Translations under genes and position numbers: made by a program
Shown: positions 7,343 to 11,025 of the stretch, piece after piece
Numbering within the stretch: position 1 is the first letter of the stretch
How the letters are laid out: each line of letters begins with the position of its first letter
Assembly: GCA_017993865.1 (NCBI GenBank)
Contig: JAGOLU010000001.1
Location: 1-24,823 of the forward strand
Reading direction: 5' to 3'
DNA: 24,823 nucleotides
Source: Candidatus Woesebacteria bacterium
GTDB taxonomy: Bacteria; Patescibacteriota; Microgenomatia; UBA1406; GWC2-37-13
Notes under the pieces: model-generated
Database searches by the model: none
What the model was told of the DNA's origin: nothing
Seen by the model: only the letters and a program-made list of their open reading frames with translations

Positions 7343-9037
7343 CTATCTCACCTGATACACCGTGAACCGTGCATTTTGATAGGCGATAGGCAGGTCATGC
7401 ACATGAGGTTTTTCAATAACAATATACGAAGCATGGTATTTTTTAGCGATTGCAATGAGCTTCTCCGTGGTCAGACTATAATACGCATGTTTAGTAATCG
7501 AGAGATTGTCATAAAAGTTGCTTTTAAACTGTTTTAAGGCTCCGGGAGCAACATCTTCAAAACGGGATTTCCAATAGGTAATATACCCGGGGTCGAACGC
7601 GCCTTCCAAAAGTTCCGAAAGGGTAGAGATAGTAGATCTTTCAGACAACACACGCCATTCAGTGTCGTACATCCAGAATTGTTCTGGTGGTGTTATAAAG
7701 AGGGCATTTTTTTGCGTATTTGCTTTTGCCCACAGTTGTACATCAGTAAACGCATTTTGATGTGGGAAAATATGTATGCCCGGGCGCCATAAGGTAAAGG
7801 AAAGAGCTAAAAGCAAACTTACGCCGTACAACAAACTGGTAAGTAAGATAAACACTCTTGATACATGTACGTTGCCAATCTTTTTACGTAGCGCATAAAA
7901 CAGAAGCAATGTCATGGGTGTGAACGACAGCAACAACCCTAGGAACCATGTTATAAATATGTGCGGTTTACGTTCATCTAGTAACTTCGCGACATACTGA
8001 GATCCGTACAGATAGCAAAAGAGCACCATAAAAACCCCCACTCGGGTGATCTGGGCCGCAATAATGATTCCCGATGGCGCCATATAGGATGCCACGAGCT
8101 GTACTAACAATATAAAAATCCCCGCATACATAAAATTAGTAACAGACACATCAGCATCGCTTTGCGCATTCTTCCTGCTGTGTTTAAATACAAAAAACAG
8201 AATGAGCGTAGACACTCCTCCAAGAGTGATGAGGTTTATATACGGCACGTCAAAACTTATGAAATGGAACAAGTGTGCAAACACTGCGCGATCTAAAATA
8301 GTAAACCACTCCTTATTTGCGGCCAGACCTACTCCCGATTCAGAGAGTTTCCAGATGATGACAGGTGACGCACTGATCAGAAATAAGGAAAGGTGTTTTA
8401 GGAGATTGCCCACACCAAACTTTTTTATCCTCAGCAAGATGTCGAACAGTATCATGCCTATAAGGAAGTTTACCGATATCACATGAAAGTTAAACATAAT
8501 ACCGAGGAGTAGAACAGCTCGGAGCGTTTTTTTCTCGAGATACCAACTGAGGGCAAGGAGCTCAAACGGGAGTACAAACGTTCTGTTTAGGATGCTAAAT
8601 TCAAAAAAGGGGAATCCCGAAAATCCGAAATGCGGGAATATCATCACCGTCACCGCGATAAGCGAACTTAGCGTGTTACGGAAAAGTGTCTGGCTCAATC
8701 GCCATATAGCCCATATCGTGGCGTATACCGTTGCAACATGTGCAACAAACATAGAAATTTCCAATACGCCAAGTTTGTAGAAAGGAATAAATAAAAACCA
8801 GAAAAACGAATAGTGAGTGAACCGGAGATCAAAAAAATGATCGCCAGGAAAAAGAGTATGGTCAACGGTCTTTTTCAAAAATGGAATATGACTCGACTGA
8901 TCAAACGTACCAAAATAGTATCCATACAAGGACACAACAATGAGGGTGAGAACAAAGAATAAAATGTGCCTGCCAACCGCATTCTTTTCCGACCGTGTAC
9001 TGAACGATCGAAGTCTTTTAACCACTGAGGTGAGCAT
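7343..9037 (-). CDS. Polytopic membrane protein, GT-C-like glycosyltransferase architecture with C-terminal soluble domain, 564 aa
   Basis: About a dozen hydrophobic segments. First loop GTFDQSSHIP carries an Asp. C-terminal WAKANTQKNALFITPP...RVLSERS domain is typical of ArnT/PMT-like membrane GTs. ATG 9037 preferred over GTG 9064 on promoter spacing. Confidence 0.65.
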   Translation of the reverse strand: MLTSVVKRLRSFSTRSEKNAVGRHILFFVLTLIVVSLYGYYFGTFDQSSHIPFLKKTVDHTLFPGDHFFDLRFTHYSFFWFLFIPFYKLGVLEISMFVAHVATVYATIWAIWRLSQTLFRNTLSSLIAVTVMIFPHFGFSGFPFFEFSILNRTFVLPFELLALSWYLEKKTLRAVLLLGIMFNFHVISVNFLIGMILFDILLRIKKFGVGNLLKHLSLFLISASPVIIWKLSESGVGLAANKEWFTILDRAVFAHLFHFISFDVPYINLITLGGVSTLILFFVFKHSRKNAQSDADVSVTNFMYAGIFILLVQLVASYMAPSGIIIAAQITRVGVFMVLFCYLYGSQYVAKLLDERKPHIFITWFLGLLLSFTPMTLLLFYALRKKIGNVHVSRVFILLTSLLYGVSLLLALSFTLWRPGIHIFPHQNAFTDVQLWAKANTQKNALFITPPEQFWMYDTEWRVLSERSTISTLSELLEGAFDPGYITYWKSRFEDVAPGALKQFKSNFYDNLSITKHAYYSLTTEKLIAIAKKYHASYIVIEKPHVHDLPIAYQNARFTVYQVR

Positions 9038-9045
9038 AGGGAAAT

Positions 9046-9054
9046 ATTGTACCA
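9046..9054 (-). promoter_or_regulatory. Extended -10 promoter (TG-g-TACAAT)
   Basis: TACAAT ends 8 nt before ATG 9037. Confidence 0.55.
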
Positions 9055-9221
9055 GGGAAGACACACTTCATTCTGGTCTAGCAATCAAAACATAGCAGAA
9101 AAGCCTTCTCCCCAAACTATCCACAAAAAATTCCATGAAAATATTAGACTGTCAGGAAGAGCTAAAGTATTATTAAAATAATATAGGTTATCCTATAACA
9201 AGATGGAAATTAAATATAGGC

Positions 9222-9250
9222 TTGACAAACAAAAAAGAGAGTACTACTAT
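9222..9250 (+). promoter_or_regulatory. Near-consensus sigma70 promoter P1
   Basis: TTGACA (9222-9227), 17 nt, TACTAT (9245-9250). Points into the intergenic region with no large ORF downstream; predicted TSS about 9255-9257. Confidence 0.75.
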
Positions 9251-9264
9251 TGAAGTATTCAATT

Positions 9265-9396
9265 CCGCTCAATTGGGGACGAGTAAGGAATCAGAAGTCA
9301 TGCAGAAGCTTTGGCATGATTATTTGAAGAAAGAACGTTAGCTAATACAAGAAAAAAGAGCATCATTACCGCTCGTAAATTGGGGACGACGAGTAA
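9265..9396 (+). repeat. Imperfect direct repeat CCGCTC-(GTA)-AATTGGGGAC-(GAC)-GAGTAA, two copies
   Basis: Copy 1 at 9265-9286, copy 2 at 9369-9396. Copy 2 has symmetric 3-nt insertions either side of the identical 10-nt loop. Confidence 0.9.
9300..9341 (+). CDS. Candidate 13-aa peptide MQKLWHDYLKKER
   Basis: ATG 9300 to TAG 9341. SD-like TAAGGA (9284-9289) 10 nt upstream, partly paired in hairpin 1. Translation unproven. Confidence 0.3.
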   Translation: MQKLWHDYLKKER

Positions 9397-9412
9397 TAAT
9401 GCTCTTCCTTCT
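9352..9412. terminator. Probable bidirectional intrinsic terminator
   Basis: Stem AAGAGCATCATTA...CTCGT / ACGAG-TAATAATGCTCTT. Six U follow the stem on the minus strand (A6 at 9352-9357); TTCCTTCT follows on the plus strand. Confidence 0.7.
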
Positions 9413-9436
9413 ATCGATATCTTTCTATATCGATAC
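9352..9436 (-). ncRNA. Candidate antisense sRNA (about 85 nt) from P2
   Basis: Begins at the predicted P2 TSS with a perfect 9-bp hairpin (TATCGATAT/ATATCGATA, 9412-9435). Ends in the terminator with loop CGUCCCCAAUUU plus U6. Confidence 0.5.
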
Positions 9437-9441
9437 CGAAC

Positions 9442-9470
9442 ATCCTATCAGTAGATATAACTCCTGTCAA
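9442..9470 (-). promoter_or_regulatory. Sigma70 promoter P2, convergent with P1
   Basis: Minus strand: TTGACA (9470-9465), 17 nt, TAGGAT (9447-9442), with extended TG-n; predicted TSS about 9434-9437. Confidence 0.7.
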
Positions 9471-9505
9471 TCACCATGGGTAGTGTAGTGATTTTTTTAG
9501 AGACA

Positions 9506-10975
9506 CTAATGAGTGCCTGCACCCTTCGCTGCATCCCCAATCATTGTGGTCATCATTTGAAAGAGTGCAAATATGCCCATCATGGCAATGTCAGAGCCAT
9601 GATCTTTAAAGAATTTAGAGAGCCAGGCAACTTTTTCTTTCATCTGCTCATCAGTCAGTCCCCGTGATTCTCCAAAATGTTTTAGGATAATGCTTGCAAG
9701 TGAGTTCTTGTCTTTAAGGTCATCTGCCTTCAATTCGAAAAATGCAGCTGGATCAGTAATATTTTCTAGCTTATCTCCCAATAGTTTTGCGAGATCTGCG
9801 CTCCCTCTCCCATCTTGCACATCTTGCAGAAGTTCAAAGACAGTGTTGCCCTGTTTCTTTCCGGCAAGTATATTTTTTACCAGGAGCTTTTCTTTTTGCA
9901 ACTGGTCTTTGTCAGCAGTAAGTTCCTTCTCTCTATCTGGTGTGATAGTCGGAGCCCGTAATGCGCTCTCGATTTGTGCGATATCTTTATCGATATCAGT
10001 AAGTCTCTCCTGTAATTTTGGCCTACCTGCGACTTTAATTATCTCCAAAATAGCTTCTGTGCTGGGGTCTTCGCCTCCTTCCATTGCGTCAATATATTTT
10101 TGTATAGTAGCAGAGTCGCCTGTCCTCGCTGTGTCTGCATCAACAAAGGTTTTCATTCTTACTGCTAGCCCCTTAACTTGATCTCTGGAAGGGCGAAGTT
10201 TGTCACCGGCTTCTGAATCGAGCAGTGTTGAATCAACTCCTTTTGCTGGTTCAAGCACATGGTTAGGGTCTGACGTATTGGCATGTTCTGCATAGGCAAT
10301 AGTCATAGGCCTCAGCACAGCCTTCACTCCTTGTTCTACTAGTCGTGGATTCACGGTAGCTGGTTTATCCAGACCAGACTGGATTTGGGAGTGTTGCGCG
10401 AGGATATAACTATCAACGAACGTTTGCTCATCGATAATGTGGGGACCCTTATTACCATCTGAATCCTGCAGGATACAACAGTACTGTATTGTGCCCTCGG
10501 CAGTACGGAGACGTGCATGTACAGTATGAATCTCGTATTCGCCCTTTTTGATAGCACTTGGTTGTTCACTTGACACGCCACCTGCGCGAACGTCATACGA
10601 AGGAATAGCTCTGCCGTTTACTACTCTAAACCTTGGTCTAGGCTCATTTGGTGCAAATCTACGATGCTCGTCGTCTGTCGCAGTAAAGTCAACCGTGGGA
10701 TCAGCAACGTTGATCTCATCTAAACTATTAAATATTTCTGCGCTCATGGCCTCACCCAATACCCCAAAAGCCGTTTCTGCAGAATTAGCGTTTTGCTTTT
10801 GTTCTGCGGTTGCGGTTTGTGTCTTTCTATGTGAGTCTACTGCCAACGATGTTATTAATCTTTTGGCTTTATCACTTTCAGATTCCTGAATCATGCCCTT
10901 TTCTGCACTAGGAGGCTTTACGACAGTCTCGATTGCATTGTGTGTAGGGGCATTCGCCCACGACTCAGTTGACAT
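9506..10975 (-). CDS. Hypothetical tail-anchored protein, 489 aa (disordered N-terminus, small beta domain, coiled-coil hairpin, C-terminal hydrophobic helix)
   Basis: Long ORF; ATG 10975 sits 6 nt after a -10 box. Heptads ERLTDIDKDIAQIESAL...DKDQLQKEKLLVKNIL. C-terminus IAMMGIFALFQMMTTMIGDAAKGAGTH. Confidence 0.8.
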   Translation of the reverse strand: MSTESWANAPTHNAIETVVKPPSAEKGMIQESESDKAKRLITSLAVDSHRKTQTATAEQKQNANSAETAFGVLGEAMSAEIFNSLDEINVADPTVDFTATDDEHRRFAPNEPRPRFRVVNGRAIPSYDVRAGGVSSEQPSAIKKGEYEIHTVHARLRTAEGTIQYCCILQDSDGNKGPHIIDEQTFVDSYILAQHSQIQSGLDKPATVNPRLVEQGVKAVLRPMTIAYAEHANTSDPNHVLEPAKGVDSTLLDSEAGDKLRPSRDQVKGLAVRMKTFVDADTARTGDSATIQKYIDAMEGGEDPSTEAILEIIKVAGRPKLQERLTDIDKDIAQIESALRAPTITPDREKELTADKDQLQKEKLLVKNILAGKKQGNTVFELLQDVQDGRGSADLAKLLGDKLENITDPAAFFELKADDLKDKNSLASIILKHFGESRGLTDEQMKEKVAWLSKFFKDHGSDIAMMGIFALFQMMTTMIGDAAKGAGTH

Positions 10976-11025
10976 AAGAAAAATATACTTGATTACTGCG
11001 TTCAATACAACTATATTTGTACTAT
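10976..11025. promoter_or_regulatory. Overlapping divergent sigma70 promoters in a 50-bp gap
   Basis: Plus: TTGATT (10989-10994), 17 nt, TATATT (11012-11017), 8 nt, ATG 11026. Minus: TTGTAT (11010-11005), 17 nt, TATATT (10987-10982), 6 nt, ATG 10975. Confidence 0.7.

Follow-up and report, generated by a model that had tools for sequence, protein, structure and literature searches.

The hairpin located at 9348-9412 of the analyzed DNA, previously regarded as a terminator shared by two convergent transcripts, belongs to a predicted independent small RNA (sRNA) gene of about 87 nt, which has no Rfam match and was detected as one locus in 113 of 151 sampled genomes of the class Microgenomatia. 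The convergent promoter facing it, P1, is also conserved class-wide, with a DnaA box and two CTATAGG sites at fixed spacing, and usually drives a basic microprotein of roughly 50 aa, but this gene is missing from all 11 genomes of the genus analyzed here, in which the predicted P1 RNA begins instead with a co-varying copy of the hairpin apex. Most likely, the locus encodes an antisense RNA pair with a par-like layout, which is not a Fst-type toxin-antitoxin locus. The window, i.e., the whole stretch of DNA analyzed here, comprises 24,823 nucleotides of a Roizmanbacteria MAG (GCA_017993865.1, deposited as Candidatus Woesebacteria bacterium); L and G numbers denote loci and genomes of relatives, respectively.

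Results

Organization of the locus

The region 9065-9505 is a gap between two minus-strand genes and holds no ORF longer than 51 aa. One of these genes encodes a 499-aa protein with no Pfam match (9506-11005), and the other a 573-aa DUF6798 membrane protein (7343-9064), followed by a family 2 glycosyltransferase. The sequence features described in the first-pass annotation were all confirmed. Promoter P1 (plus strand, 9222-9250, TTGACA-17-TACTAT; -35 at 9222-9227, -10 at 9245-9250, predicted start near 9257) and promoter P2 (minus strand, 9470-9442, TTGACA-17-TAGGAT; -35 at 9470-9465, extended -10 TGATAGGAT with TG at 9450-9442, predicted start near 9436-9434) each match 10 of 12 consensus positions. 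The motif AATTGGGGAC occurs at 9271 and 9378 and only three times in the 0.87-Mb genome, the third copy lying inside an ORF. Copy 2 equals copy 1 with GTA inserted between CCGCTC and AATTGGGGAC, and GAC inserted between AATTGGGGAC and GAGTAA. In addition, ATCCTATAACAAGAT (9190-9204, in the P1 operator-like palindrome) and ATCCTATCAGTAGAT (9442-9456, overlapping the P2 -10 region) form an 80% direct repeat, which is probably due to chance, since the P2 -10 does not resemble the operator in other genomes.

The minus-strand RNA (9436-9345) folds into two hairpins far better than expected by chance (-38.8 kcal/mol, z = -7.0), whereas the plus-strand RNA (9257-9412) is less exceptional (z = -3.0). 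Hairpin 1 of the plus-strand RNA (9263-9290; CCGCTC 9265-9270, AATTGGGGAC 9271-9280, GAGTAA 9281-9286) is only weakly folded and is followed by a middle hairpin (9291-9341) containing a 13-codon ORF (9300-9341). The 6+10+6 bp pairing of the sRNA apex with hairpin 1, formed by the repeats at 9265-9286 and 9369-9396, is real (-31.4 kcal/mol). The duplex of the whole RNAs reaches -40.0 kcal/mol as compared with -26.8 +/- 4.2 for shuffled sequences, 0.4% of which pair as well; however, in the joint minimum-energy fold both RNAs keep their own hairpins, leaving only about 10 loop bases free to start pairing. What lifts the locus above chance is its conservation in other genomes rather than the statistics within the window.

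The hairpin is conserved across Microgenomatia

In a BLAST comparison, the 55 nt of hairpin 2 (9348-9412) were 80-96% identical in 47 of 61 related genomes across three families. A pattern scan of one genome per species returned at least 119 species, all titled Roizmanbacteria, Microgenomates, or Patescibacteria, apart from some obviously mislabelled MAGs. A covariance model built from 78 of these sequences found one locus in 113 of 151 genomes and 101 of 127 genera sampled across the class (one of the 113 being the unpublished genome G127, on which no claim rests) and none in about 115 genomes of other Patescibacteria classes, which also served as a specificity control. Two families lack the sRNA (f26, 0 of 7; f30, 0 of 6). 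G009 (same genus) holds several copies of the hairpin (C75:840-894, C75:2314-2652, C59:22408-22462, C59:20790-20959 (L002)), one of which directly follows a 241-aa ORF as if it were the terminator of that gene; this could reflect local spread or an assembly or binning artefact (81% complete, 150 contigs).

A match to a known RNA or mobile element had been set beforehand as a finding that would refute a new module. No Rfam 15 family matched the window at the gathering score. The best sub-threshold hit, RF02844 RefA9 (an Enterococcus antisense sRNA, likewise a hairpin plus terminator of similar length), scored 24.9 bits against a gathering score of 49 (E = 0.16) and lay on the plus strand, and four relatives gave no hit at E <= 1, so that the element is not a member of this family. 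No match was found in viral contigs, and we found no paper describing the RNA. A MITE or REP-type repeat was rejected, since the 10-mer occurs three times in the genome, the longer CCGCTC...AATTGGGG word occurs only at this locus, and the model finds one locus per genome.

Structure and strand of the predicted sRNA

The consensus comprises a 10-bp lower stem (GCAUUACUAC / GUAGUGAUGC), a 1-nt bulge, two C-G/G-C pairs, a 1-nt bulge on the other strand, four more pairs, and an apical loop that is C-rich in most lineages and ranges from 9 to about 60 nt. In the window, the core stem has 16 bp with two 1-nt bulges and a U·G wobble (about 20 bp counting the basal A-U pairs), a C-rich loop GUCCCCAAUU, and a U6 tail at 9357-9352. 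Variable pairs change in a compensatory manner, including 25-78 (CG 27, AU 18, GC 3), 20-83 (CG, UG, UA, AU), 17-86 (CG, UA, AU), 27-76 (UA, CG, UG, GC), and 9-94. The variation of the loop length by 1-5 nt and more ruled out a coding hairpin.

Several features assign the RNA to the minus strand. The U·G wobble, which would be a C·A mismatch on the other strand, is kept in 43 of 49 sequences. The covariance model scores 76.4 bits on the minus strand against 38 bits on the plus strand. The stem is followed by at least 5 U in 8 nt in 99% of relatives on this strand, as compared with 48% on the opposite one. In the window, too, the promoters and the hairpin are in place and the minus-strand hairpin is followed by U6, but as a plus-strand terminator the hairpin is weak, with the tail UUCCUUCU, and no transcript ends have been mapped. 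P2 carries an exact TTGACA in 114 of 127 unique relatives and a 17-nt spacer in 120 of 127, and lies either directly against the stem or 30-70 nt upstream. A 5' extension is present in 75 of 127 relatives; the 70 that were folded are unrelated in sequence but form a hairpin (mean z = -4), like the 5' accessory hairpin in the window (9412-9435, minus strand, 9-bp stem), and are thus conserved in structure only.

P1 and the microprotein of relatives

A DnaA-box-like 9-mer, CTATCCACA (9117-9125, plus strand; one mismatch to TTATCCACA), lies 105 nt upstream of the P1 -35 hexamer, a palindromic operator-like site, TATAGGTTATCCTATA (9182-9197), unique in the genome, lies 40 nt upstream of it, and a third ATAGG half-site abuts P1 (9216-9250 together). 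P1 with this half-site was found in 37 of 41 Roizmanbacteria loci and 19 of 24 loci from other orders, where it is convergent on the sRNA. In Roizmanbacteria, the DnaA-box-like 9-mer sits at -105/-106 in 31 of 37 loci and the palindrome TATAGG-N4-CCTATA at -40/-41 in 29 of 37; in L045 both half-sites changed together (TATCGG...CCGATA). In other orders, the second half-site lies exactly 27 nt from the first in 18 of the 19 loci, and an exact TTATCCACA lies at a fixed offset in 13 of 19. DnaA boxes are not enriched in the window, and the locus lies at varied positions in single-contig genomes, which ruled out an origin of replication.

In Roizmanbacteria outside the window's genus, a plus-strand ORF of 41-55 codons ends 3-53 nt before the hairpin, with mostly third-position codon variation and a conserved C-terminus (QFxxLxKKNLxVPxKLYHL). 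The P1 -10 hexamer ends 6 nt before its ATG, giving a predicted leaderless mRNA. The same microprotein, with the C-terminus ...EQFxxLKxKGLSIPVxTL, faces the sRNA in 16 of 23 loci from other orders. It is mostly basic and hydrophilic, has no Pfam match, and its homologs are annotated only as hypothetical, although some non-Roizmanbacteria forms have a short hydrophobic N-terminus. AlphaFold2 predicted a single helix (pLDDT 72), and the ESM Atlas returned nothing. A profile search found the microprotein in 37 of 151 genomes, although the profile misses divergent forms such as those in L194 and L197; 36 of the 37 lie in genomes that also have the sRNA, and the coordinates compared put them beside it. 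In G030, a second, weaker copy of the microprotein gene (C2:11516-11620, E = 3.6e-6) lies away from the sRNA locus.

In Roizmanbacteria outside this genus (L009-L047), the sRNA promoter sits within or just after the last codons of a gene encoding a DUF2298 membrane protein of roughly 750 aa with a conserved C-terminus, followed by a class I aminoacyl-tRNA synthetase gene, but this synteny does not hold in other orders.

Loss of the ORF and gain of an apex copy in the window's genus

The microprotein profile found nothing in any of the 11 genomes of the genus, six of which are at least 90% complete, whereas it scored 60-68 bits in five of five control genomes. P1, its DnaA box, and its operator-like site are retained. 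In the genus relatives examined, the partial copy of the hairpin apex lies within about 10 nt of the predicted P1 start and tracks each genome's own sRNA loop (AATTGGGG type against TTTAAAGGGG type), with CTCAATTGGGGAC in the window's sublineage and CTCGTTTAAAGGGGAC in the other; in L033 it is split by an inserted structured segment. The spacer between copy and hairpin varies from about 80 to 350 nt, and neither its sequence nor the 13-codon ORF is conserved in sister genomes. We treat it as non-coding spacer, since the idea that it is a decayed remnant of the microprotein gene gained no support (no profile hit). About 45 nt after its hairpin 1 copy, L004 (G006, same genus) carries a second, diverged hairpin resembling the sRNA, with a U-tract, on the plus strand (1190-1250), so that its P1 transcript may be a short sRNA of about 110 nt. 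Loss of the ORF is not unique to this genus: in L185, L195, and L204, P1 lies only 17-57 nt from the hairpin.

Extra apex copies also occur in other lineages, directly after the stop codon in L009, L015, L026, and L183, or next to the start codon in L176 (14 nt, -43 kcal/mol) and L187 (12 nt, 5 nt upstream of the AUG). In contrast, in most microprotein-bearing Roizmanbacteria there is no complementarity beyond the shared hairpin and no further copy elsewhere in the genome, and the repeat is absent from most other genera. Pairing of the sRNA 5' hairpin or apex with the body of the microprotein mRNA in Roizmanbacteria was no better than in cross-genome controls. A genome-wide duplex scan for further targets in the genome studied found nothing above background, with hairpin 1 ranking only fifth including the self match.

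Metatranscriptome contigs and the SRP pathway

Short contigs from three wastewater metatranscriptomes cover 9177-9486 and are deepest over 9264-9407, but they come from relatives, carry no direction, and could include DNA. A contig start at 9259 coincides with a 30-nt overlap to the neighboring contig and is therefore a graph break, not a mapped 5' end.

The possibility that the hairpin is a bacterial SRP (4.5S) RNA was rejected, since there was no match to RF00169 or RF01854, the hairpin has no GNRA-capped domain IV motif, and no Ffh was found in the genomes tested. In G015, G017, G030, G059, and G000, together with 61 genomes sampled from the class and 61 from the phylum, no SRP54-type GTPase domain (Ffh, FtsY) scored above the cut-off apart from two borderline P-loop-only hits, and no Ffh M domain, TIGR00959 match, or SRP RNA was found. 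SecY scored 330-360 bits in all five genomes tested, the 14 control organisms all matched, and the DTAGR motif is missing from the six-frame translation of the genome studied. Either Patescibacteria lack the SRP pathway or the first-pass filter of the search fails for them; we found no paper on this. Type A RNase P RNA (RF00010) was not found in three near-complete Roizmanbacteria genomes (G015, G017, G059) but was found in two genomes of other Patescibacteria classes (G228, G229), and it may be too divergent or of another type in the former.

Discussion

We consider it more likely than not that 9348-9436 (minus strand) is a stand-alone sRNA gene, ancestral to the class Microgenomatia, which is started by P2, continues with a lineage-variable 5' hairpin, and ends in a conserved bulged hairpin plus U-tract that also serves as its terminator. 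Its constant partner would be the transcript of P1, which is probably conditionally expressed given its DnaA box and repeated CTATAGG sites at fixed spacing, and which, by running into the same hairpin, would carry the exact complement of the sRNA. In the window's genus, the C-rich sRNA loop could start pairing with an unstructured 5' target (10 bp, extendable to 6+10+6) as well as with the complementary terminator loop. The inferred mechanism is loop-initiated antisense pairing, by which each RNA lowers the free amount, stability, or translation of the other, whereas the invariant lower stem, with its bulges and U·G wobble, probably also serves as a recognition surface for a protein or RNase. 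The sequence features, their conservation, the covariation, and the strand assignment are established by the analysis, whereas transcription, pairing in the cell, binding of DnaA and of a factor to the operator-like site, the direction of control, and the output are inferred. The recurrent apex copies, co-varying with the genome's own loop in the window's genus, indicate selection on RNA-RNA pairing. On the other hand, simple antisense action does not explain why the stem rather than the loop is the most conserved part, and the sRNA was found far more widely than the microprotein and persists where P1 abuts the hairpin with no ORF, so that it must have an output, which our analyses did not identify.

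The interpretation offered in the first-pass annotation, a kissing-loop RNA switch or type I toxin-antitoxin-like module, is partly supported. Convergent promoters, a direct repeat that makes the two RNAs complementary away from the overlap, and an RNA element absent from Rfam all held, and P1, P2, and the repeat are conserved in relatives. However, no toxin is present, and hairpin 2, which had been taken as an elongated version of hairpin 1, is the ancient element, of which hairpin 1 is a lineage-specific partial copy.

The main rival reading, possible but less likely, is that the sRNA is mainly protein-bound, as a housekeeping or regulatory RNP, with the bulged stem as its functional part and the convergent P1 transcript serving only to titrate or destroy it, or overlapping it incidentally. 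In line with this, the sequence invariance of the stem exceeds what pairing needs while the loop varies in length, the sRNA is single-copy, class-wide, and kept after repeated loss of the microprotein, and no trans target was found in the genome studied. However, no candidate protein partner was identified, and the co-varying apex copies argue for pairing. Part of the stem invariance in the Roizmanbacteria set was imposed by our search pattern, although it also holds in the model-based class set.

A type I toxin-antitoxin locus of the par/Fst kind is very unlikely. In the par locus of Enterococcus faecalis pAD1 (RNA I encoding Fst, RNA II antitoxin), two convergent small RNAs share a bidirectional terminator, direct repeats become complementary RNA segments away from the overlap, and pairing is thought to start at a loop. 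The predicted layout of our locus is similar, although the U-tract that would end the plus-strand RNA is poor in the window and good in only 48% of relatives, and in L176 and L187 the sRNA loop covers the ribosome-binding region of the microprotein. In contrast to par, however, there is no Fst-like hydrophobic toxin (no conserved ORF in the window's genus and a mostly basic, hydrophilic microprotein elsewhere), the locus is chromosomal, single-copy, syntenic in Roizmanbacteria, and vertically inherited across a class rather than plasmid-borne and patchy, the extra repeat is present only in some lineages, and the RNA is more conserved than the peptide and survives its loss. In the Bacillus subtilis type I pairs txpA/RatA and bsrG/SR4 and in Staphylococcus aureus SprA1/SprA1AS, the mRNA of a small protein and an sRNA overlap only at their 3' ends, and a part of SprA1AS outside the overlap pairs with the start region, as the sRNA loop could in L176 and L187 and with hairpin 1 here. 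Those systems encode membrane toxins, often in prophage remnants, with demonstrated RNase III dependence and toxicity, which for the present pair could be proposed by analogy only. DnaA-box-controlled small genes such as B. subtilis sda likewise combine a strongly promoted gene for a protein of roughly 50 aa with a conserved upstream DnaA box, but they show no sequence similarity, sda has no antisense sRNA, and DnaA binding here is inferred from a 9-mer at a fixed position.

Two further readings fit poorly. The hairpin plus U6 has terminator form and lies about 100 nt after the stop of the 499-aa gene, but a mere bidirectional terminator with chance promoter hexamers is very improbable, since terminators are not conserved at 80-96% identity across an order or as a covariance-model family across a class, and P2 lies between the upstream stop codon and the hairpin in about 90% of relatives; the alternative proposed in the first-pass annotation, an attenuated P2 leader for the downstream glycosylation genes, is rejected, since the sRNA keeps its strong terminator whatever gene lies downstream and in whichever orientation, and no antiterminator fold, including in the 5' hairpin, is conserved. 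An element acting as DNA (a palindrome bound by a dimeric protein or extruded as a cruciform, such as a recombination or partition site) is equally improbable despite the single-copy inverted repeat, since the U·G/C·A asymmetry, compensatory changes, strand-specific U-tracts, dedicated promoter, and variable central spacer point to RNA-level selection, and it does not resemble dif or parS.

A more far-reaching possibility, which remains tentative, is that the hairpin RNA is a class-specific core riboregulator or RNP component of Microgenomatia, whose free level is set by a convergent antisense promoter that reads DnaA and a dedicated CTATAGG-binding repressor. This would be a replication- or cell-cycle-coupled RNA switch, of which the microprotein would be an optional second output, lost several times.

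Almost nothing is known about RNA-based regulation in CPR/Patescibacteria, which cannot be grown alone. The RNA gene described here is more conserved than most proteins of the class, is single-copy in about three quarters of the sampled genomes, and is paired with a promoter whose DnaA box and operator-like sites keep exact spacing across the class. It offers a concrete marker for annotating these genomes, a testable regulatory circuit, since both promoters are sigma-70-like and could be assayed in E. coli, and a natural experiment, in which repeated loss of the microprotein while the RNA pair is retained separates the role of the RNA from that of the peptide.
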